From contig OY776328.1 of NCBI GenBank assembly GCA_963675515.1, positions 1,830,001 through 1,862,000 on the forward strand: DNA of 32,000 bases, given 5' to 3'. The notes beneath the pieces were generated by a model that made no database searches, was not told where the DNA came from, and worked only from the letters and a program-made list of their open reading frames with translations. The translations under genes were made by a program, and so were the position numbers. The stretch is from Coprobacillaceae bacterium. Its GTDB lineage: Bacteria; Bacillota_I; Bacilli_A; Erysipelotrichales; Coprobacillaceae. This document shows, piece by piece, positions 12,918-32,000 of this stretch (position 1 is its first letter; the number at the start of each line of letters is the position of its first letter).

Positions 12918-12993
12918 GGGGGTTTAGCTCAGTTGGGAGAGCATCTGCCTTACAAGCAGAGGGTCGGCGGTTCGAGCCCGTCAACCCCCACCA
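12918..12993 (+). tRNA. tRNA-Val (anticodon TAC)
   Basis: Cloverleaf read by hand: acceptor GGGGGTT/AACCCCC, anticodon arm tctgc-cttacaa-gcaga, GTTCGAG T-loop, encoded CCA. Confidence 0.92.
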
Positions 12994-13015
12994 TTTATTA
13001 TAAGCAATCAAAAAT

Positions 13016-13091
<76 letters not shown>

Positions 13092-13094
13092 TAT

Positions 13095-13178
13095 GGAGGA
13101 GTAGCGAAGTGGCCAAACGCGGCTGACTGTAACTCAGTTCCTTTCGGTTCGGTGGTTCGAATCCGCCCTCCTCCACCA
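13095..13178 (+). tRNA. tRNA-Tyr (anticodon GTA)
   Basis: Acceptor GGAGGAG/CTCCTCC, anticodon loop ctgtaac, long variable arm as expected for bacterial Tyr, encoded CCA. Confidence 0.9.
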
Positions 13179-13183
13179 TCTAT

Positions 13184-13259
13184 TGGGGTATAGCCAAGCG
13201 GTAAGGCAACAGACTTTGACTCTGTCATCTCCCTGGTTCGAATCCAGGTACCCCAGCCA
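13184..13259 (+). tRNA. tRNA-Gln (anticodon TTG)
   Basis: Acceptor TGGGGTA/TACCCCA, anticodon arm acaga-ctttgac-tctgt, encoded CCA. Confidence 0.9.
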
Positions 13260-13267
13260 ACTTTTTT

Positions 13268-13343
13268 GACCCGCTAGCTCAGTCGGTAGAGCATCTGACT
13301 TTTAATCAGAGGGTCAGGCGTTCGAGTCGCCTGCGGGTCACCA
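13268..13343 (+). tRNA. tRNA-Lys (anticodon TTT)
   Basis: Acceptor GACCCGC/GCGGGTC, anticodon arm tctga-cttttaa-tcaga, encoded CCA. Confidence 0.92.
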
Positions 13344-13354
13344 TTTTAAATATT

Positions 13355-13437
13355 GCGGGTGTGGCGAAATTGGCAGACGCACCAGACTTAGGATCTGGCG
13401 GGTAACCGTGGGGGTTCGAGTCCCTTCACCCGCACCA
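13355..13437 (+). tRNA. tRNA-Leu (anticodon TAG)
   Basis: Acceptor GCGGGTG/CACCCGC, anticodon arm ccaga-cttagga-tctgg, long variable arm, encoded CCA. Confidence 0.9.
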
Positions 13438-13541: not shown

Positions 13542-13609
13542 TATATTGTTCAAGTTTGAAACAATATATAATTGGTTAAGGACACAATTTCAATTATAAT
13601 TGTGTCCTT
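13542..13609. other. Two adjacent perfect hairpins at the tRNA-proximal edge of the AT-rich island
   Basis: Hairpin 1 has the stem tatattgtt (13542-13550) / aacaatata (13560-13568). Hairpin 2 has the 12-bp stem aaggacacaatt (13578-13589) / aattgtgtcctt (13598-13609). Neither has a clean U-tract on either strand. Confidence 0.5.
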
Positions 13610-13620
13610 CATAGAAATAT

Positions 13621-13905
13621 TTAATTTAGTTTTCTATCCCCCCAAAGCGTAATAGAATTCAAAGTCAAGAAAACGAGCATAGTTAACAAAAACACGAGAT
13701 AATATGATCTATTTTCATTAGTGGATGTTATCATACTGGTATCAATGTTCATAATATCAACTATTAAATAAATCATTATTAGAAGAATTCCAGAGAAAAC
13801 GACAATTCTAGCGTGCAATAATTTTGCTATCTTCCCGAAAATTCTAAAAACATCAAAAATTATCACCAAAACCAAAATGCATTCAACAAGATAAAATATT
13901 CCCAT
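13621..13905 (-). CDS. Small 3-TM membrane protein, immunity-like, paralog of 15328-15609
   Basis: 94-aa ORF whose ATG lies 2 nt after the stop of the upstream ORF, so the two are translationally coupled. It has three hydrophobic helices and a conserved ITSTNE.R.YY loop shared with the 93-aa ORF. Confidence 0.6.
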   Translation of the reverse strand: MGIFYLVECILVLVIIFDVFRIFGKIAKLLHARIVVFSGILLIMIYLIVDIMNIDTSMITSTNENRSYYLVFLLTMLVFLTLNSITLWGDRKLN

Positions 13906-13907
13906 AG

Positions 13908-14528
13908 TTATTTACTCACATAAGTGCCCTTTCCGTAATAAGTATTAGGCTCTTTAGCAGTCGGATAATTTGTCCAAACATCAGTCAAGCTGTGACTATA
14001 CCATTGGCCTTGATATGAGGTGTAAAACTGTGAATGTATTATCCCCTTCCCAGCATTACGAGCATCAATGTATGGCTTCTGAGACATATATGTGTCAAAT
14101 TCAGATAATAATATTGCTGCAGAAAAATATGTTGTACCCGCCCCAACCCATGCAGCTAGCGCCGTTGCAACTGCTGTCGAAAATCCTTTTTTTACCAAAT
14201 AGCTAATTGCATATTCTAACGATTTACCTGCTATGACTGGTATAGTGCCCTTAAATTCATTTATGAAGGACCCCGAACTGAACCCAGCACAAGTATATAT
14301 AACATCAACTTTAGAAATATATTCTATTTTTCTCATCCAAATGTTACCATTATAAATTACACTAGGTGCATCACTTTTATAATTCCAATATGCACCATTT
14401 GTTTGAGAATAGTGCGATGTACCATTCAATACTCCGTCAAAAATTGAACTCAGGGAATAAATACTTTCCGAATTATTCAATGAATATAACACCTGTTCCG
14501 CTTTTTCCTCAATATACTCTTTAAACAT
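13908..14528 (-). CDS. Hypothetical protein, distal reading frame of a frameshift-split ~261-aa gene (candidate effector/toxin)
   Basis: The 206-aa ORF from the track has no RBS before its ATG, and its frame stays open upstream to the A7 tract at 14626-14632. It has one Gly/Ala-rich hydrophobic helix (STAVATALAAWVGAGTTYFSAAILL) and an aromatic/Gln-rich tail. No family is recognised. Confidence 0.55.
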   Translation of the reverse strand: MFKEYIEEKAEQVLYSLNNSESIYSLSSIFDGVLNGTSHYSQTNGAYWNYKSDAPSVIYNGNIWMRKIEYISKVDVIYTCAGFSSGSFINEFKGTIPVIAGKSLEYAISYLVKKGFSTAVATALAAWVGAGTTYFSAAILLSEFDTYMSQKPYIDARNAGKGIIHSQFYTSYQGQWYSHSLTDVWTNYPTAKEPNTYYGKGTYVSK

Positions 14529-14545
14529 TGGAGCTTTATCATAAT

Positions 14546-14692
14546 CTAATATGTATGGATTTTCAGAAGTCCCATCACCTGATACAATTGAAGCGTCAAT
14601 TTCATCTTCATATATTGTATCAATATTTTTTTAACATCACCTTTCGCATAAATATCGTATTTGTTAACTAAACTAACACATTGACTGTTCAT
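14546..14692 (-). other. Proximal reading frame (48 codons) of the same split gene; carries the real start signal
   Basis: ATG 14692 is preceded by AGGTGG with a 6-nt spacer. It reads MNSQCVSLVNKYDIYAKGDVKK, then enters the A7 tract. In this frame it terminates at 14546; one extra A would fuse it to the 13908-14528 frame. Confidence 0.5.
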
Positions 14693-14831
14693 TTAATACC
14701 ACCTGATCTTGTTCAATCCGTTCAATGATTATCCATTCAAAGGACATCGTATTTTTAATTTCTGTTTTAACAACTGTCTGTCTTGCTTTTTTATTGCTTT
14801 CTAATTCTACAAGATGCCTGAAAAACAACAA

Positions 14832-15041
14832 TCAAAAGAATGATATTCTTCTCGAAAAAACCAACAATATCGGTAGAACAATAGTTATATATATCAAAAT
14901 AGAAAATAACTCAAGCACAGTGTTATCATGAATAAAAAAATTATCCACAATAAAGATGAATTCACTGATAACCAAAAAATATATTCGACTTGCAAATAGT
15001 ATGAATGCCCCCTTAATTAGAACCTCTGACCATTTCGCCAT
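14832..15041 (-). CDS. Small 2-TM membrane protein, first gene of the island cassette
   Basis: 69-aa ORF with AAGGAG at 15058-15053 (11-nt spacer). It sits downstream of a near-consensus promoter and has two hydrophobic helices. It could instead be a chance ORF in AT-rich DNA. Confidence 0.4.
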   Translation of the reverse strand: MAKWSEVLIKGAFILFASRIYFLVISEFIFIVDNFFIHDNTVLELFSILIYITIVLPILLVFSRRISFF

Positions 15042-15072
15042 CGTGTATCTATCTCCTTATCCCAACAGCTTA

Positions 15073-15101
15073 ATACTATCACAGGAAATTGATGGAGTCA
15101 A
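15073..15101 (-). promoter_or_regulatory. Near-consensus sigma-70 promoter of the island cassette
   Basis: The minus strand reads TTGACT (15101-15096), the 17-nt spacer ccatcaatttcctgtga, then TAGTAT (15078-15073) with an upstream TG (extended -10). Confidence 0.5.
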
Positions 15102-15327
15102 TATCCGTCATAATGAGCAATAAAAACAATTGTGTGTTTTTTGTATTCTGCGGTACGATGTTTACAACAAAAATATTTTATTAATCGATTCATTACAAAT
15201 CAAACACATAGAAAACATAATTCTCTAGCAGAAATTGCGTAAATCAATATTCATTCGCAATAGGCCCACAATAAATTATCACATGCGTGTAAATGCTAAG
15301 GGGCTAAGATCCTATAAATTATACTCA

Positions 15328-15609
15328 CTATCTATCCTTGTAAAGCGTAACACCACTTATCATAAGGAATGAAGATAAAGTTAAAACAAATAGATAATAG
15401 TAATTTCTATATTCATTAGTTGAAGTTATCAAGCTAAAGCTGGTACCGATGTCCATAGTCTCAATTGCAATATAGATTAAAATCAGAAAAAGACATCCAA
15501 AAAAACTAATAGCAGAGTGCAATTTCTTGGATATTTTTTTTGCAAGCCGCAAGATAGCAAAAATTATTAGTATAGTTAAATAGAATTCCATGAAAAAATA
15601 TAGTCTCAT
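15328..15609 (-). CDS. Small 3-TM membrane protein, immunity-like, paralog of 13621-13905 (orphan copy)
   Basis: 93-aa ORF with an AGAGG RBS 8 nt upstream. By hand alignment about 40 of about 92 positions are identical to the 94-aa ORF. Confidence 0.6.
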   Translation of the reverse strand: MRLYFFMEFYLTILIIFAILRLAKKISKKLHSAISFFGCLFLILIYIAIETMDIGTSFSLITSTNEYRNYYYLFVLTLSSFLMISGVTLYKDR

Positions 15610-15962
15610 TTTTAATACCTCTCACACATCAAACACAATTTACATTTTTCCTTTTAACACAAAGGGTTACCACCAAATAATTTGAAGAACAAGTATGACT
15701 AGATGTGTAAAATTTCAAATATTTATAACAATCGTGTCCAAATAATGCGTCTAGCTACAACTATCTTCGCAAGCCAAAATACGCTTCCTGTGGTTTATAG
15801 ACATTCAAGTATAGTATTAAAAATTATGTTCTATTACCATTCTACAAATTTGGCTATTACCCCAATATTTATTTCAGACCCATTATTATCTTTGACAATT
15901 ATTTTTACAGGATAAGATGTTAAAGTTAATACCTAGAATCCCGCGTAAATTTATAACAACAC

Positions 15963-16440
15963 CTAAGGTAGCGGGATGTTGAATGATTCATAGATGATTC
16001 GCCGTTCCTTTGTTACTGGAGCAATGATGCTTTGGCTGTTGATATCTTGGATACGCAACTTTGCAAGGATTTGGAGAAGCTCTTTCATCGTGTGTTTTTT
16101 GTACAAGCCCATTTCATTCATCACTTTGTTGATTTCTGACATGATCACTGATGCAATGAATCCGACAAATAGTTTCCCCTGCATCGCATTATCGCTGCGA
16201 ACTCGTAACCTACCAAGGTCGATGCGGTTTTAAGATTTTATTCAATAACGTCTGTCCTGATGTTGACAGTGTATCCATTGTCCTTCTTTTCGAATTTGCG
16301 GATAATCAGATACTTTCCACATTCCGCGTCATGTAGCCATTTTTCAGGATTTTCAGTTGCCTTTTGCCGGAGCATGGCTATTGAAGAATAAAGGTCTTCA
16401 CGGATTCCCACAGCCTTTTTAGCGCTGTAGTTATAACCTT
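15963..16440 (-). pseudogene. Decayed DDE transposase remnant (IS4/IS1634-like C-terminal part)
   Basis: The hand-translated minus strand gives GYNYSAKKAVGIREDLYSSIAMLRQKATENPEKWLHDAECGKYLIIRKFEKKDNGYTVNIRTDVIE, then an in-frame TAA. The expected NRIDLGRLRVRSDNA is readable only in a shifted frame. The original frame then resumes with MQGKLFVGFIASVIMSEINKVM...PLP. There is no intact N-terminal or catalytic part and I saw no terminal inverted repeats. The remnant may extend further toward about 16650. Confidence 0.65.
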
Positions 16441-17011
16441 ATGCGTGTAGGAGTATCAGACTACTTGTTTCAGGCTAACATGACAGCCATCATTCCAAGT
16501 ATTGAATATTCAGTTGTGATTTTCCAATTGGAAAATCCTCCCATTTCATGCCTAGGCACTTATAGGGAAACGTTTCGCACCATGACTAAAGTCACGAGTG
16601 TTCTCGACCAGTTAATAAACTGAATTGCTTTCTAGTTACCCTAATCTCGATTCGTCAATATTTCCAAGGTCAATACGAAAATCATAATTACCATAGTTAA
16701 GATTAAGTCATCGCTAAATCCGCCAACATACAAAGATATACATTTTTATCATGGTATCCTGTAGTCAATTCGTTTTTATCAAATTTGTAGATGTAAATTG
16801 AAGCACGTATACTTGAAGAATAACCCGCATAATCAGCACCATTGTCTCGCATCAGAAAACACATGCAAATGTTTGATAAAGACAAAATCGCAATTATTGC
16901 CGGTTTTATCATCTTCTTCAACAAGTCCAACATCCAAAAATGAAAATGTTAGTTTAAAAACTTACCGTATGCTTGAACCATGAAAGAAGAAACTGTTGCT
17001 CTCAACCGCCT

Positions 17012-25067: not shown

Positions 25068-26045
25068 ATGAATTTCAAAAAAATCACATTGCCGTTTTTA
25101 GTAAGTGGACTAATTTTAACCGGCTGCCAATCAGGCGGTTCCATACCAAAGGTTGACAATCAGGACGTAATAGCTTCGCTTACAGACTATAATATCCTTG
25201 CGGATGATATTTTCAACAAGATCAAGGAAACCACCAACGGTAAAAACGCTTATTATGCTGTAGTTATTGAAGCAATCGTCGAAAAATATTTTCCGATAAC
25301 CGAAGATATGAAAAACGATGCGAAAATAACAAGAGAATCAATCGAAGCGAGCTATCAGAGCAGTTACGGTGATTCGGCTGATGAATATCTTACTCAGGCG
25401 TTAGCATATTATGGATATGAATCAATGGACGAATATGAAGAGTCCCTGATAAGCCAGTATCAATATATCGCATTTTTGCAAGATTATATCGACAACAATC
25501 TTGACACAGTATTGGCGGACTATATCAGTGTAGCTAAACCTAGAACAGCAAGTGTTATTTCAATAACAGTTGAAAATGCCGACAGTCTTACAGATGATGA
25601 GAAAGCCAAACTCGATGCAGTTGATGAAAAGATTGCTGCCGGAGAAGATTTCGCGACTATTGCAGCGGAATATTCATCCGACTCAACAGCGACCGCAAGT
25701 GGAAGTCTTGGCATCGTTGATATAAACACGGATCTAGATTCCACATATGGTGATGGTGCAACGGATGAGGTAATCGGTTTGAATGCCGGGGAAACCTCAA
25801 GTTGGCTTGCCAACAGCACTGTAATTTCCATTTTCAGATGTGACAGCACCGACAGCGAAACAATCAAAGAAAAAGTCCAAACACTTGGCATCGACTCACC
25901 ACTATTGACATACGATAGCTATATGGAATATCTTGCCTTCAACACTTATGAGATAACCTATAAGGATGATGATGCAAAAACAATAATCCAGGAGATGGTG
26001 GCTGACGCCTTAGAAACAAGAGCTCAAGAAAGAGGTGACAACTAA
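25068..26045 (+). CDS. PrsA-like foldase lipoprotein with degenerate parvulin domain
   Basis: The signal peptide plus lipobox reads MNFKKITLPFLVSGLILTGC, with a GGAGG RBS before ATG 25068. The parvulin-like core is GEDFATIAAEYSSDSTATASGSLG. Confidence 0.65.
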   Translation: MNFKKITLPFLVSGLILTGCQSGGSIPKVDNQDVIASLTDYNILADDIFNKIKETTNGKNAYYAVVIEAIVEKYFPITEDMKNDAKITRESIEASYQSSYGDSADEYLTQALAYYGYESMDEYEESLISQYQYIAFLQDYIDNNLDTVLADYISVAKPRTASVISITVENADSLTDDEKAKLDAVDEKIAAGEDFATIAAEYSSDSTATASGSLGIVDINTDLDSTYGDGATDEVIGLNAGETSSWLANSTVISIFRCDSTDSETIKEKVQTLGIDSPLLTYDSYMEYLAFNTYEITYKDDDAKTIIQEMVADALETRAQERGDN

Positions 26046-26890
26046 TGAAAAAATTTATTCCATTTGCATTAGGTGCGGTCATCCTTTCCGGATGCACATC
26101 CAACCAGACATATATATCGACAGTCACAGACGGTACCTCGGCTTTGGTCGAGATCGATGGTACAACTATAACTAAAAATGATATTTACCATTATTATATG
26201 GAGAACTACGGAAGCTCACAGGTCCTTGATTTCGCATTGACCCACATTGCTCAAATCGAAATAACTGATCAGGATACCATTGATAAAAAGCTTCAGGAAA
26301 CCATCGATACTTATACAACGTACGCAGGTGTCGATTTGGATAGCTATGCGACTTCCCTTGGATACGAATCCGGAGACCAATACACCCAAGAAGCCCTTTT
26401 ACCTTCGGTACTGCAGCAATTGCTGATCGAAAAATACGTGACCGATAATGTTGCAACCCTTAAGGACGAATATAAAATCAAGTACCTTAAGACTGTCACA
26501 TTCAACACGGAAATTGAGGCTACAGATTTTATCAGCTCAACGACGAACGAAAATTTTGATACTGCAATCAGTGACAAGGACGGACTAGATGTAGGAATTG
26601 TAACTCAGGACAACACCGACCTTGACACCAATATAATCGGTGAACTTGACAGCTTTTCGACAGATGGAATCTACCAGGAAGTTATCAGCACCACCGACGG
26701 AAAATTCGTTGTTGTTTATGTTTACAACACTGAACTTGATGACGAGTCAAAAGCCGAGGTAGTTTCAACCTTGATGACCAGCGATGGCATTTCAACAGAA
26801 TGCGAAAAATACTATTTGGACACGTATGAATTCAATGTCAATGAACCTTTGATCAAAGAGGTTATTGATGCTACTTATGCTACCGAGTAA
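26045..26890 (+). CDS. Lipoprotein, PrsA/SurA N-terminal-domain-like, no PPIase domain evident
   Basis: The signal peptide plus lipobox reads MKKFIPFALGAVILSGC. Its start overlaps the previous stop (TAATG). It is an acidic Thr/Asp-rich protein. Confidence 0.6.
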   Translation: MKKFIPFALGAVILSGCTSNQTYISTVTDGTSALVEIDGTTITKNDIYHYYMENYGSSQVLDFALTHIAQIEITDQDTIDKKLQETIDTYTTYAGVDLDSYATSLGYESGDQYTQEALLPSVLQQLLIEKYVTDNVATLKDEYKIKYLKTVTFNTEIEATDFISSTTNENFDTAISDKDGLDVGIVTQDNTDLDTNIIGELDSFSTDGIYQEVISTTDGKFVVVYVYNTELDDESKAEVVSTLMTSDGISTECEKYYLDTYEFNVNEPLIKEVIDATYATE

Positions 26891-27315: not shown

Positions 27316-27353
27316 AAGCAAAATTATTCAATATAATTAAGATACACCATAAT

Positions 27354-27383
27354 AAAAGCGGCCACCAAAAGGTGGCCGCTTTT
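27354..27383. terminator. Bidirectional intrinsic terminator between convergent HIT and yhaM
   Basis: Perfect 13-bp stem aaaagcggccacc / ggtggccgctttt with loop aaaa. Confidence 0.8.
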
Positions 27384-27395
27384 ATTATGAATAGT

Positions 27396-28340
27396 TTATA
27401 TTTTGGGTTTGTAGAAACTGCGGTTTTCAAGCGAAAAAATCCTTTTAGTGAATTCTCCAGGTTCCACGACATCCAACGCCTTATCCATCATCAGCATTCT
27501 TGCATCGATATTGTCAATCAAAGATATGATCTCCGCCTCTTTTAGCTGAGGCAATACCGGAGATCCAAATTCTTGCTTCCCGTGATGTGAGAGGATGATG
27601 TGTTGGAGCAAAAAGACTTCTTCTCCCTCGATACCGAGCTCATCTGCCTTCGATTTGATCATGCAATTGGTAATTGAGATATGACCGACCAAACGGCCCT
27701 CAGGAGTATACTCCGGAACTATAGGACCAGACAATTCAATTATTTTACCCAAATCATGAAGGACAATCCCTGAATAAAGCAAATCAGAGTTCAACTGGGG
27801 ATAAATGACCAGTAAAGATTTCGCGATATCCAACATCGTTACTGTATGGTAGATAAGGCCGGATACAAATTCATGATGATTTTTACTTGCAGCAGGATAC
27901 ACCCTAAGCTTATCAAGATTTTCATTGAACAGCTTCGACGTAATCAGGAAAATGCTGTTGTTTTTGATTTTACCGATGTATTTCTCAACCTCTTCAACCA
28001 GGACATCGCTGTCTATTGGGGCTGATTCCACATATCTGATAGCATCCTTCTCGTCATCGGAGATGAACTTGATTTTGGCTACTTTCATCTGACGATCCAG
28101 ATTGTATTTGATAACATCCCCGGTCACCCTTACAACAGCGCCTCCCACAAACTTCTCTATTTGTTCATCAGTGGCAGACCACAGCTTCGCATCCAGTGTT
28201 CCTGTTGCATCCTGCAATGTCAAGGTAATGTAATTGGTCCTATTGGCTCCGCTCGTCTTTCCGACGATAGCCCGGTTGATCAAGCAATCAAACGTAACGT
28301 TGGCATCTCCTGCTTTCAAGTCTTTTATATTAATCATCAA
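27396..28340 (-). CDS. yhaM: 3'-5' exoribonuclease YhaM (OB-fold + HD domain)
   Basis: It has the N-terminal OB-fold YITLTLQDATGTLDAKLW and the HD motifs HHEFVSGLIYHT and VLHDLGK. Its start overlaps the upstream gene's stop by 11 nt. Confidence 0.85.
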   Translation of the reverse strand: MMINIKDLKAGDANVTFDCLINRAIVGKTSGANRTNYITLTLQDATGTLDAKLWSATDEQIEKFVGGAVVRVTGDVIKYNLDRQMKVAKIKFISDDEKDAIRYVESAPIDSDVLVEEVEKYIGKIKNNSIFLITSKLFNENLDKLRVYPAASKNHHEFVSGLIYHTVTMLDIAKSLLVIYPQLNSDLLYSGIVLHDLGKIIELSGPIVPEYTPEGRLVGHISITNCMIKSKADELGIEGEEVFLLQHIILSHHGKQEFGSPVLPQLKEAEIISLIDNIDARMLMMDKALDVVEPGEFTKRIFSLENRSFYKPKI

Positions 28341-30333
28341 GTACTTCTCCTCTTTCTACTATTTCCTTAATATCTTCATACCGGTAGCCTTTTTTCAATA
28401 AGCCATCGATACAGCGTTGTATCAATTCATCTCCTTGGTATTTTCGCTGGTATTTTCTTTGACACTTCATCAGTTCTTTTTCTAATGTTTCCTTCTCTTT
28501 CACGATGTCGAAACGCAAATTGATCGATCCCATGGCGATATCAATCGTTTCCGGGGTAAAGCCGCGGTTGAACAGTCGATTGCGGATGGCATTAATCAAT
28601 GAACGGTATGACTTGGTCGATTCCGTGGCATATATGTCTTCTATCATGCTTTTTGCGCTCTCGATTTGATTTTGCTCATCGAGATTCTCAATGGCATAAT
28701 CGATTGCATCAAGACGGACCTTGCTTTTTCTTAAACTATAGATAGCCCGGTTGATACCTATCGACTTCCTCGTGCAAATCTCAATATAGTCGCTTGCGTA
28801 GCGCTCGTCATTTATGAGATCCCGTTCCTTAAGGAACTCAATCGTAGTATCTATTTGCTCATCAGTAAAAAATCCCGCATCAACAAGTTTTTCTTTTAAC
28901 TGGGCTTCTGGATAATCCTTGAAGGCAAGCCACTTGAGTGCCTTGTTATAGGCGATTGTAATCTGTTCCAAATTCTTCAGCACATTGAATATTTCCCTGT
29001 TGATGACTTTGCCAACTGACAGCTCATATTCATCGATGAATTTCGCTGCCAGCTCAAGCGTGATCACGGTCTGATCAACTTTGAAATCGACATCGAAATA
29101 ATTCTGCTTGGAAGATTTGATTGCTGCAATTTCATAATTGTAGGTTTTAGAGACAACTGCCTCATCGTAAACTGTAATAATATCCTCATAAAACTTCTGC
29201 GAAGAAAAACGGACGCTATCTTCAAGGGATGATGCTTTCAAGTTTTCAATGTCCTTATCCATCAGATCAAGAACTATCCTTAACAATCCCTCCGTATCAT
29301 TAAAGAAAAAGCCATTTACGCCTTCCTTGATGACACCCTCAAGATTCTCGTCATAGCGGGCCAAAGCAGGTATTCCACTGGCCATAGCCTCGATATATGT
29401 CAACCCCTGGGTTTCGGACAACGATGCCGATATAAACGCATCGCTAATATGATAATGGGCAGGAACAAGCTCACCAAATTGGGGACCTGTAAAGATGACA
29501 TGATCTTCAATATCAGCCTCAGCAGCGAGATTTTTCAATTCCTCAAGATAATTTCCTCCACCGACGACCAACAAGACAAAGTCATCACGTATCTGTTTGA
29601 GTTTCGCCACCATTTCCAGCAATGACTCAATTGATTTTTCCTTGGCTACCCGCCCCAGGAAAATCATGACAAATTTTTCGTTCAGGTCATACTTTTCGAT
29701 CAACTTGGCCTCCAAATCAGGAGATCCATTGCAAGGATCGAATCTTTCCAATTCCAATCCGGTCGGTATGATCCGCGGTTTCTTTTTCAACCCATACTTT
29801 TTCAAAGCGTCGGCGGTCTTCTGTGAAGGAACTATAAGTTGTGAGCACTTGTTGGCGTACAGATTAGAAAGCCTTGAAATGATATTCTTCAAAAAATCAT
29901 CCAATACCTCATTATTGATCGGATTGACATAATGAGAATAATCAATATACATTGTATGGTAAGTATAAACAACAGGCAAATCAAGTTCCTGTGCAACAAG
30001 TCGGCCGAATATTCCTAGACCGAACTCAGTCTGTACATGGACAATGTCTGGCTGGAAATCCCGAATTTCCCGCATCCCAGAATAAGAATATATGTTGCAG
30101 GCGCGATATCCGTAAAGCAATGACATTTCCAAGCCTGGAACCCTGACAATATTGTCATTGATATCATCCTTATAATCGCTGTCACTAGGCAATTCGCTAG
30201 TGATGACAATGACCTCATGTTTGTTTTTAACCAGCGCATCATGCAATGTTTTCGTACTGGTGGCGACGCCGTTTAGATCCGGCAAATATGTATCTGAAAA
30301 TAACGCTACTCTCAAATTCTCTCTCCTAACCAT
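28330..30333 (-). CDS. Fusion protein: GT4 glycosyltransferase (diacylglycerol glycosyltransferase-like) + full-length RecX-like C-terminal domain
   Basis: Residues about 7-390 are GT4: RVALFSDTYLPDLNGVATS, then ETQGLTYIEAMASGIPALA (the E-x7-E region). Residues about 397-667 read like a complete Firmicute RecX: ...AYNKALKWLAFKDYPEAQLKEKL...LINDERYASDYI...GINRAIYSLRKSKV...LLKKGYRYEDIKEIV. A likelier start is TTG 30315, behind AGGAG with a 7-nt spacer, giving MRVALFSDTY. Confidence 0.8.
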   Translation of the reverse strand: MVRRENLRVALFSDTYLPDLNGVATSTKTLHDALVKNKHEVIVITSELPSDSDYKDDINDNIVRVPGLEMSLLYGYRACNIYSYSGMREIRDFQPDIVHVQTEFGLGIFGRLVAQELDLPVVYTYHTMYIDYSHYVNPINNEVLDDFLKNIISRLSNLYANKCSQLIVPSQKTADALKKYGLKKKPRIIPTGLELERFDPCNGSPDLEAKLIEKYDLNEKFVMIFLGRVAKEKSIESLLEMVAKLKQIRDDFVLLVVGGGNYLEELKNLAAEADIEDHVIFTGPQFGELVPAHYHISDAFISASLSETQGLTYIEAMASGIPALARYDENLEGVIKEGVNGFFFNDTEGLLRIVLDLMDKDIENLKASSLEDSVRFSSQKFYEDIITVYDEAVVSKTYNYEIAAIKSSKQNYFDVDFKVDQTVITLELAAKFIDEYELSVGKVINREIFNVLKNLEQITIAYNKALKWLAFKDYPEAQLKEKLVDAGFFTDEQIDTTIEFLKERDLINDERYASDYIEICTRKSIGINRAIYSLRKSKVRLDAIDYAIENLDEQNQIESAKSMIEDIYATESTKSYRSLINAIRNRLFNRGFTPETIDIAMGSINLRFDIVKEKETLEKELMKCQRKYQRKYQGDELIQRCIDGLLKKGYRYEDIKEIVERGEVLDD

Positions 30334-31342
30334 TAATTTCGCGATCTAACGCAAAGACAAGACCTCCCAAAATTAATCCCAAATAATATGTAATGATCCT
30401 CCATAAAAGCATAGTTGTCGGTGTCAACACCCCACCTAAAAGTGGTGAGAACAAAATGAAGTATATTCCTTCAGAGCCCCCACTAGCACCAGGAACCGGA
30501 ACAAATGCGGTAACCATATAAATAAACGAAGATATCCCGATGAATTCAAAAAGCTGATAGAAGTCCAAAGGGACATTCAAAGCCAATCCGGCAAAAAAGG
30601 GAATTGAATATATGAAAATAAGTTTGAGGACATTTCCAATTGAAGCCTCAACCAACAGTCTTTTGTTTTTCTTAAGATGTTTTACTTCTTTTCTGAAGTT
30701 ATTCAACTGAACCTCAAAACGGATCTTGGTGTCATGAAAATTCTTGACAATTTTCACCTTGGCCAGAAGCCTGATTACTACGTTTGAGATGAATTTTTGA
30801 AATTTTGACGAACTTGCACCAAGATACAATCCGACGATTACAAAAAAATTGACAAGGAAACCCACCAAAGTCAGAAGAAAAACGTCCGAATAGAGCGCCC
30901 TATAAGCATTGAAGCGAAAAGCAATGACAACAATCGAAAACGCGACCAAAACAGTCTGGTAGACAATAAATCCCATAAGCAATATGCTCGAAGACTCGCA
31001 AGGTTTAACCTTTTGTTTGTTAAACACGTAAACTTGAGCAAATTGCCCGCCGCTGCTAAAAGGAGTTACACCATTAAAAAAAGCAGCAGACAAGGAATTT
31101 TTAAGACCTTGTTTGTATTTATAATTTTTATTGTACATTCTGGAAAACTTGGTCAATATAAGTGCGTCAACCAGAAAATAACAGAACATCACAAAAAAGC
31201 CGATAAATACAAAGAACAAATTCGCATTCTTCAGTGCCCTCAAAGCATCACCCAAATTATCCTTGAATAGAAGATAAATAGAGGCCCCGGAGACGAGCAG
31301 GACAAGCAATAAATTCCTTAAAATAGTTTTCCGATTATTCAT
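30326..31342 (-). CDS. UPF0104 / lysyl-PG-synthase-TM (MprF flippase-domain-like) membrane protein
   Basis: 338 aa and about 8 TM, with a basic N-terminus, a mid-protein KK-rich loop, and a PVPGASGGSEG motif near the C-terminus as in the flippase-like domain family. Confidence 0.65.
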   Translation of the reverse strand: MNNRKTILRNLLLVLLVSGASIYLLFKDNLGDALRALKNANLFFVFIGFFVMFCYFLVDALILTKFSRMYNKNYKYKQGLKNSLSAAFFNGVTPFSSGGQFAQVYVFNKQKVKPCESSSILLMGFIVYQTVLVAFSIVVIAFRFNAYRALYSDVFLLTLVGFLVNFFVIVGLYLGASSSKFQKFISNVVIRLLAKVKIVKNFHDTKIRFEVQLNNFRKEVKHLKKNKRLLVEASIGNVLKLIFIYSIPFFAGLALNVPLDFYQLFEFIGISSFIYMVTAFVPVPGASGGSEGIYFILFSPLLGGVLTPTTMLLWRIITYYLGLILGGLVFALDREING

Positions 31343-31346
31343 AAGA

Positions 31347-32000
31347 TTACCTGTTGTTCAAAGTTTCGTGATAGACAGTTATCAACTGTTTACCAACCTC
31401 TTTTATATTCCGCTGTGAAGCTACTTCATAACCGGCATTTGCCAAACTATTTGAATCATTATAAATGATTTCATTCATTTGATGAATGAAATCCTCCAGG
31501 TCACTACCCATATGGCAATTGATTCCGCTTTGCATCCAGCCATCAAAAACCGGGATGTCACGCAACAAGACATTCTTGCACTTGCAAGCCAAAGCCTCAA
31601 GGACGACTATACCCTCAGTTTCTTCTCTGGACGGAAAGAAGAAAACGTCACACCTTGAATACGCGCCAATTAACGTTGTTGAATCAACGTAACCAGCCAT
31701 CAGTACATTGTCTGGCAAATTCCTGAGAATTTTCAATATATTTCCAGTTGGCGCCGACTTCTCAACGTCTCCGAACCAAATAAACTTTACGTCAGGAAAT
31801 TTCTTTGCCACTTCTATGAATGTATCAAAGCCTTTGCGTTCAAAAACCCATCCGACAGATATTACGATTTTATCTTCCGGATTTATCTTGAAATCGGACA
31901 CAAACTGATGTTCATATTCGCTGGAGTTTTTGAATCTATCCAAATCAATACCGTTGGAAATTGGCGTGATTGGAATCTCGATACCATATGATAACAAAAG
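31347..32000 (-). CDS. GT4 glycosyltransferase, C-terminal half (gene continues past the right edge)
   Basis: The frame is open to base 32000. EETEGIVVLEALACKCKNVLLRDIPVF is the GT4 Glycos_transf_1 nucleotide-sugar binding region. Confidence 0.75.
   Translation of the reverse strand, partial: LLLSYGIEIPITPISNGIDLDRFKNSSEYEHQFVSDFKINPEDKIVISVGWVFERKGFDTFIEVAKKFPDVKFIWFGDVEKSAPTGNILKILRNLPDNVLMAGYVDSTTLIGAYSRCDVFFFPSREETEGIVVLEALACKCKNVLLRDIPVFDGWMQSGINCHMGSDLEDFIHQMNEIIYNDSNSLANAGYEVASQRNIKEVGKQLITVYHETLNNR

Follow-up and report, generated by a model that had tools for sequence, protein, structure and literature searches.

A RecX module fused in frame to a candidate glycolipid glycosyltransferase and coupled to yhaM in Erysipelotrichales

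Work on RecX treats it as a free, soluble protein that modulates RecA filaments. In Proteobacteria and Actinobacteria, its gene forms recA-recX pairs that are co-transcribed or overlapping. For Firmicutes, Cardenas et al. 2012 stated that recX lacks a conserved genomic context; in Bacillus subtilis, recX deletion lowers chromosomal transformation to 0.5%, and in competent cells RecX labeled with yellow fluorescent protein (RecX-YFP) sometimes shows a static, polar localization (PMC3527212). Another B. subtilis protein, YhaM, was described by Hanssmann et al. 2025 as a hexameric 3' exonuclease of single-stranded DNA (ssDNA) that is required for transformation, namely transformation with ssDNA intermediates, and for which an unidentified regulatory partner was proposed; RecX goes unmentioned there (PMC12107432). 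As for membrane glycolipids, bgsB of Enterococcus faecalis is reported to adjoin bgsA directly and to be required for all glycolipid synthesis (PMC3083329). These three subjects meet in a stretch of 32,000 nucleotides (nt) from a Coprobacillaceae bacterium (contig OY776328.1, positions 1,830,001 to 1,862,000; hereafter the window). On its minus strand, one gene encodes a glycosyltransferase of family 4 (GT4) that continues in frame into a RecX module (GT4::RecX) and is followed by yhaM. This fusion is real, old, mostly retained and reversible. Its protein products are already present in databases, as 'glycosyltransferase' or 'RecX family transcriptional regulator', while no published description of the GT4::RecX architecture or of a recX-yhaM linkage was found in the literature. 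The gene and its parts are the following, with residues numbered according to the product of 661 amino acids (aa):

28330..30315, minus strand: GT4::RecX fusion gene, 661 aa plus stop codon from TTG 30315 (open reading frame (ORF) list, homologue alignments)
30313..30327, minus strand: likely translation start with AGGAG ribosome-binding site (30323-30327) and TTG start codon (30313-30315), read from the sequence
29149..30315, minus strand: GT4 module of GT-B fold, residues 1-389, candidate Mgs/BgsB-like alpha-monoglucosyl-diacylglycerol synthase (Pfam, NCBIfam, AlphaFold and Foldseek)
29389..29415, minus strand: E301-x7-E309 catalytic motif of retaining GT4 enzymes (alignment of 22 fusions)
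29134..29148, minus strand: fusion junction, residues 390-394, K-T-Y-N-Y (alignments, structural model, comparison with split junctions)
28999..29139, minus strand: beta-rich module that opens the long Firmicute RecX at its N-terminus, residues 393-439 (PRK14135 alignment, model strands)
28354..28998, minus strand: RecX repeat region of helices, residues 440-654, which holds the three Pfam matches (HTH1, HTH2 and HTH3) (Pfam, AlphaFold)

As reported in a first-pass annotation made from the letters of the window, the program-made ORF list contains a continuous frame of 667 aa (28330..30333, minus strand) without any interruption. The RecX part had been given there as 28330-29150, which is essentially right, the actual boundary lying at about nt 29142. 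The ATG that opens the 667-aa frame at 30333 overlaps the stop codon of the upstream gene, which encodes a flippase-like protein. All homologues begin six residues further on in the alignments, i. e. at the position of TTG 30315, which is located 10 nt past this stop codon and is preceded by the AGGAG site at a distance of 7 nt. Hence, the actual product is probably the 661-aa protein, which is also the length of its database entry. Match positions of Pfam and NCBIfam given below refer to the 667-aa numbering.

A missed stop codon or a frameshift during sequencing or assembly could in principle have merged two genes, as the first-pass annotation had considered. Natural split forms do exist, and one of them (L046) is split at a homopolymer run. 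Yet, no gap is needed to align the junction in the window with dozens of fusions from independent assemblies, isolate genomes among them. In a set restricted to one genome per species, which gave 80 loci, a single fused ORF was found in 39 genomes at 30-52% identity, so that the phyletic spread covers many genera of the Erysipelotrichales. Isolates among these include Bulleidia extructa W1219, Amedibacillus dolichus DSM 3991, Breznakia pachnodae DSM 16784, Dubosiella muris, Lactimicrobium massiliense and [Eubacterium] hominis. Full-length homologues with 84-88% identity occur in several metagenomic contigs, one with 73% identity lies on a contig of 2.6 Mb, and hundreds of contigs of Thomasclavelia spiroformis encode homologues of about 50% identity. 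When the RecX part alone served as query of an exhaustive search, about 21 further clusters (at the 50%-identity level) of proteins with 650-665 aa were added, in which RecX is matched at approximately 390-660; the lowest identity to the query among them is 24%, and named members belong to Candidatus Fimiplasma and Catenibacterium. Since the architecture of about 660 aa recurs in hundreds of independent assemblies and in the 39 species genomes, a frameshift artefact is excluded for all practical purposes. The organism labels of relatives were taken from record titles, and several contigs of metagenome-assembled genomes (MAGs) are plainly mis-binned. Contigs L050, L053, L068 and L073 bear this Bacilli-type operon and are labeled Coriobacteriaceae, Prevotella, Muribaculaceae and Gemmiger, probably because of binning errors.

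The proposal that the last ~270 aa represent a full Firmicute RecX was borne out by profile searches as well as by the predicted fold. Pfam RecX_HTH1 matches positions 461-501 with 48.4 bits (cutoff 26), RecX_HTH3 follows at 615-658 with 24.9 bits, marginally below the cutoff of 26, and RecX_HTH2 gives a weak match at 508-546 (14.7 bits). The best NCBIfam match, to the long Firmicute RecX model PRK14135, extends over 402-661, equivalent to profile positions 7-262 of 267, and reaches 124-127 bits with a cutoff of 240. Altogether, 11 NCBIfam models match the C-terminal part, all of them RecX models and none from another family. With 130 bits, the free recX product of the sister clade (L078) scores close to the fused one (127 bits) and also stays below 240; the low score is hence attributable to divergence of the lineage and not to the fusion. 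A sequence search of the PDB retrieved the RecX entries 3e3v (E=1e-8) and 3d5l (E=1e-4). When the whole-protein model was submitted to Foldseek, only GT4 enzymes were returned, and the RecX part was then modeled alone. This model of the C-terminal 272 aa (residues 390-661; predicted local distance difference test 87.9) has significant PDB matches only to RecX crystal structures, i. e. 3d5l and 3e3v from Lactobacillus, 3c1d from E. coli, and 3dfg, with target-normalized template modeling (TM) scores of 0.63-0.85 (3d5l: E 4e-10, TM 0.79; 3e3v: TM 0.85).

Of the layout that the first-pass annotation had assigned to RecX, the N-terminal beta module stands, while its three helical repeats turned out to be four in the model, formed by 12 helices in groups of three. 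As in the long Firmicute class exemplified by B. subtilis RecX (YfhG), the module is about 270 aa long and places the beta module in front of three-helix repeats; it differs in being joined to a 389-aa GT4 and in having no start codon of its own. Within helix 3 of the first repeat, L495 is the sole residue that is invariant in an alignment of 22 fusions. The B. subtilis allele recX342 encodes L101P and inactivates RecX (PMC3527212). L495 lies in the same helix as L101, and both may be equivalent residue for residue. As a side observation, the beta module (residues 393-439) weakly resembles small beta-barrels of the Mop/tungstate-binding and OB-like types, with about 50 aligned residues at a Foldseek E of ~0.1.

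The N-terminal half is equally well delineated. Pfam assigns Glyco_transf_4 to positions 21-197 (105.6 bits) and Glycos_transf_1 to 213-360 (108.1 bits), and the top family by a wide margin is the NCBIfam model MGlcDAGSynMgs (NF049988), which covers residues 8-394 with 230 bits; its equivalog cutoff of 400 is not reached, and the free glycosyltransferase (GT) of the sister clade scores 269 bits. These assignments bear out the earlier proposal of a GT4 enzyme of the monoglycosyl-diacylglycerol synthase type for the first ~390 aa. Accordingly modeled as a GT-B fold, residues 1-389 find the GT4 enzymes MshA, BshA and PimA in Foldseek. E301, E309, G221-R222 and K227 do not vary among 22 fusions with a mutual identity of 31-51% (alignment A2), from which the module is predicted to be catalytically intact. 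With the Mgs synthases it hence shares the GT4/GT-B fold and the invariant EX7E motif, but it carries a C-terminal RecX, and its sugar donor and product are putative.

The two halves meet without a linker. In the AlphaFold model, the last GT helix (372-389) directly enters the first RecX beta strand (393-403), which belongs to a three-stranded beta module (393-423) that is followed by the helix stack. Among fusions of 31-51% identity, the junction aligns without sizeable indels. A separate expression of RecX from an internal start was considered as well and rejected: neither alignment A1 nor A2 has a conserved Met column near the junction, no in-frame ATG, GTG or TTG was seen among the junction codons read in the window, and promoter-like matches inside the fusion gene occur at chance level (19 compared to an expected 14.0 ± 3.7). 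RecX thus appears to be made only as part of the fused chain.

A plausible origin of this architecture is provided by relatives in which both genes are separate. For counts of the gene states, three metagenome loci were added to the 80 loci mentioned above. Across these 83 loci of the same synteny, 42 are fused, 29 are separate (including the three broken or fragmentary loci L032, L053 and L054), ten possess the GT4 gene with no recX nearby, and two are cut by contig ends. In the typical separate form, a GT4 of about 391 aa is followed by a recX encoding 260-290 aa and then by yhaM. Here, recX nearly always begins before the GT gene ends and occupies the +1 frame. Among the 14 junctions that were read, a distance of exactly 23 nt from its GTG or ATG to the GT stop codon is frequent, and a GAGG or GGAGG site is usually visible upstream of this start within the conserved '...EVY...' codons. 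By its layout, this overlap qualifies as ordinary translational coupling, and a frame change of one nucleotide within it would suffice to fuse both proteins. The arrangement is reminiscent of the recA-recX pairs, where recX is likewise coupled to an upstream gene via overlapping frames; in the present case, however, the upstream partner is a lipid glycosyltransferase and the overlap has collapsed into a true fusion. While the first-pass annotation saw no obvious rationale for tethering RecX to a lipid enzyme, an evolutionary one thus emerges from the merger of coupled, overlapping neighbors by a change of frame. The ancestral operon would have contained, in this order, a BgsA/IagA-type GT, a flippase-like gene, an Mgs/BgsB-type GT4, recX and yhaM. 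In this layout, which a sister group of uncultured Bacilli still shows, a GAGG ribosome-binding site precedes the GTG or ATG of recX, which is read in the +1 frame and begins 23 nt before the GT4 gene ends. The two frames would then have been joined where they overlap, by a frame change close to the root of the fused Erysipelotrichales clade.

This scenario is consistent with a neighbor-joining tree of the GT domain, calculated without bootstrap values, that comprises one clade with only separate genes (uncultured Bacilli, e. g. Candidatus Onthovivens and Clostridium sp. CAG:288), one GT-only clade and one fused clade. The only split members inside the latter are L046 and L047. In L046, an Erysipelothrix MAG, the split falls into a run of seven A's (GAAAAAAATTAC, L046:7150-7210), and removal of one A recreates the fused frame; the frame was thus broken either very recently or only by a sequencing error in the homopolymer. 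A third split occurs in two independent samples (L087 and L088), whose GT is nearest to fused Massilimicrobiota-like sequences according to the nearest-neighbor distances used for its placement. The gene appears to have been re-split at least three times inside the fused clade, and the simplest history would be one old fusion at the base of that clade with general retention and few reversions.

By its position, the fused module seems to be the recX of the lineage and no extra paralogue, at least at the loci traced. The free recX of the sister clade and those of re-split relatives occupy the same place after GT4 and before yhaM. The closest stand-alone RecX from the exhaustive search (P0121/P0270) is encoded between a 393-aa GT4 and yhaM in a wider synteny like that of the window and represents the third split described above, and all four stand-alone relatives that were traced (P0270, P0125, P0309 and P0143) are located directly upstream of yhaM. 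As candidates for second genomic copies, P0121, which belongs to a re-split relative, as well as P0125, P0309 and P0143, each at the recX position upstream of yhaM, were therefore ruled out.

Both halves are under strong purifying selection, with no sign of decay in RecX. The comparison of the window with a relative of 87% amino-acid identity gave a proportion of nonsynonymous differences (pN) of 0.039 for RecX and 0.099 for GT, next to a synonymous proportion (pS) of 0.7-0.85; as synonymous sites are saturated at this divergence, only pN and pS are given and no dN/dS. At matched GT identity, fused RecX is at least as conserved as separate RecX, for example with 0.31 versus 0.25 (fused versus separate pairs) at 45-55% GT identity and 0.42 versus 0.36 at 55-65%.

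The enzyme half, on the other hand, can be dispensed with. Several proteins of 366-463 aa (P0131, P0165, P0192, P0215, P0224, P0264 and L085:8001-9284) carry a full RecX behind a remnant of 95-195 aa that resembles the GT4 N-terminal domain. On a hidden Markov model (HMM) of the fusion-family RecX, these stub forms reach 196-241 bits compared to ~50-156 bits for the free recX of the sister clade, and they look like the outcome of enzyme decay after fusion. L085 has lost the BgsA-type GT and flippase-like genes but preserves the overlap of its stub::RecX gene with yhaM (ATGATTAA), and L089 and L091 have recX-yhaM without any GT. RecX is retained in all of these and does not depend on GT catalysis. 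Plausibly, the stub was kept since RecX would have had no translation start of its own after the fusion.

The remaining genes of the operon were assigned in the same way:

31347..32000, minus strand: 3' part of a BgsA/IagA-type glycolipid glycosyltransferase gene, the first of the operon, cut by the window end (homologues)
30326..31342, minus strand: flippase-like membrane protein, LPG_synthase_TM / TIGR00374, 338 aa (Pfam, NCBIfam)
28330..28353, minus strand: translational coupling site of recX and yhaM, read from the sequence
27396..28337, minus strand: yhaM, 3'-5' exonuclease with OB fold and HD domain, 313 aa (Pfam, NCBIfam)
27347..27390, no strand: strong bidirectional intrinsic terminator between yhaM and a convergent HIT gene (stem of 19-20 pairs, 9 of them G-C)

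Along the minus strand, the order is hence BgsA/IagA-type GT, flippase-like gene, GT4::RecX, yhaM and terminator, which recurs in L001, L003 and L084 and in relatives including T. spiroformis. The first gene encodes 335 aa in relatives, and its L084 orthologue scores 460.9 bits on NF053513, just above the cutoff of 460. Like bgsA-bgsB of E. faecalis, the operon therefore pairs a GT4 with a GT that reaches the BgsA/IagA equivalog cutoff, but here a flippase-like gene separates the two. The most constant neighbor of RecX is located downstream. The ATG of yhaM (28335-28337) overlaps the stop codon of the fusion gene by 8 nt (ATGATTAA, 28330-28337), with an AGAGGAG ribosome-binding site (28347-28353) inside the end of the RecX coding region, 9 nt upstream of the ATG. 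The same overlap is present in L001, L003, L084 and L085. Among the loci with RecX in any state and at least 600 nt of downstream sequence, the start of yhaM is no more than 150 nt away from where the RecX frame ends in 66 out of 67. The statement of Cardenas et al. on the recX context does not hold for these lineages.

The yhaM product shares the OB and HD architecture with B. subtilis YhaM and S. aureus Cbf1, and its sole NCBIfam match is PRK13480 (YhaM) with 378 bits, below the cutoff of 460. In B. subtilis, yhaM is part of a LexA-controlled unit unlinked to recX (PMC12107432), whereas it is coupled to recX here. Control of the operon by the SOS response finds no support: LexA-type GAAC-N4-GTTC boxes occur at chance level in the window (14 found versus 12.9 expected), and only one of 66 related loci has an exact box in the 400 nt that precede the operon. 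As both proteins matter for transformation in B. subtilis, the pairing of recX with yhaM makes sense as an ssDNA/RecA module. This coupling also offers a concrete candidate for the partner of YhaM.

Which selective forces may have shaped the fusion? Most likely, the product is bifunctional with modules that keep their ancestral roles, and the merger of the genes left RecX attached to a membrane-peripheral enzyme as a side effect. The N-terminal module would then still produce monoglucosyl-diacylglycerol at the cytoplasmic face of the membrane, while the C-terminal one would act on RecA filaments as the ordinary RecX of the lineage, made 1:1 with and covalently attached to the enzyme. By itself, the covalent link probably makes little difference to fitness, and the unit kept by selection would be recX in translational coupling with yhaM. 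Several points weigh against this. Both halves stay below their NCBIfam equivalog cutoffs (230 versus 400 bits for GT4, 124-127 versus 240 for RecX), the orientation of the domains is not confidently predicted (predicted TM score of 0.56 for the full protein), and the tree behind the proposed history has no bootstrap values. Also, the count of recX copies covers the loci around the operon, so that a distant second recX is possible. Finally, a split takes little mutation, yet almost every species sampled from the fused clade has kept the fusion, and the link could thus be advantageous. The last argument leads to an adaptive tether, by which selection keeps the fusion because RecX and the co-synthesized YhaM are held at the inner membrane face, either at the entry site of ssDNA in natural transformation or at the contact of RecA bundles with anionic lipids. 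The persistence in 39 species-level genomes from many genera despite easy re-splitting, the tight junction devoid of indels and the slightly higher conservation of RecX in the fused state at matched GT divergence would fit such a function, as would the B. subtilis transformation phenotypes of yhaM (PMC12107432) and recX together with the occasional polar, static RecX-YFP (PMC3527212). Lineages that retain a stub of the GT N-domain on RecX after loss of catalysis can be added to this list, but the stub is equally explicable as the sole remaining translation start for RecX. Moreover, at least three re-splits within the fused clade and the lineages that lost the GT have kept recX-yhaM, from which it follows that RecX works without a tether. 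The membrane binding of GT4 is deduced from its family, and natural competence of these bacteria is putative. An adaptive tether is hence rather unlikely.

Considerably less probable still is a recruitment of the RecX fold to a role apart from RecA, as the first-pass annotation had raised, e. g. to a part in regulating or scaffolding glycolipid synthesis. The association of recX with glycolipid genes indeed predates the fusion, and the RecX scores below equivalog cutoffs would be in line with a changed function. However, RecX and yhaM persist after loss of BgsA, the flippase-like gene and the GT catalytic domain, so that the constant partner is a nuclease gene rather than a lipid gene. Fold and sequence match RecX only, and the invariant L495 is located in the helix in which L101P inactivates B. 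subtilis RecX (PMC3527212), presumably at the equivalent residue. A bolder extension of the tether, for which the chances appear slim, is that RecX and YhaM constitute a dedicated ssDNA pair, in which RecX is the partner postulated by Hanssmann et al. 2025 and restrains or releases the YhaM hexamer on incoming DNA, with the GT4 fusion pinning the pair to the membrane beside the DNA-uptake machinery. If true, such a hypothetical RecX-YhaM pair at the membrane would physically link glycolipid synthesis with recombination control. Returning to the bifunctional by-product of a gene merger, the Erysipelotrichales, among them the gut genera Thomasclavelia, Catenibacterium, Dubosiella and Solobacterium, appear to make RecX only as the tail of a lipid enzyme, which amounts to a natural experiment on whether RecX can function while tethered. 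The series of split, fused, re-split, stub and GT-less loci moreover is a worked example of how overlapping, coupled genes may merge and one half decay. With the fusion itself explained and of modest interest, the recX-yhaM coupling and the tethered and untethered forms are worth more attention.

A few further observations concern the surroundings of the operon. The 32-kb window does not contain recA. In L001 (682-5949) and L003 (528-5959), a gene for pyruvate:ferredoxin oxidoreductase precedes the operon, with a gap of ~5 kb between them, in which no genes were called in L001 and two short ORFs (93 and 73 aa, no Pfam match) in L003; the size of this gap may fit an rRNA operon. L085, L091 and L093, in which the set of glycolipid genes is diminished or absent, likewise have the oxidoreductase gene as upstream neighbor. 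On the plus strand of the window (26045-26890), a 281-aa lipoprotein-like protein with a signal peptide, an LSGC lipobox and no Pfam match is encoded directly after a gene for a PrsA-like rotamase, an arrangement kept in L001, L003, L084 and L087. Farther away, a cluster of six tRNA genes (12918-13434) is followed by a stretch of low GC content (0.31-0.32, 13600-17000) with short ORFs only. It harbors two paralogous membrane proteins of ~94 aa (13621-13905 and 15328-15609, 43% identical) as well as a 206-aa protein without Pfam match, and may represent a small island or a cassette of toxin/immunity type.

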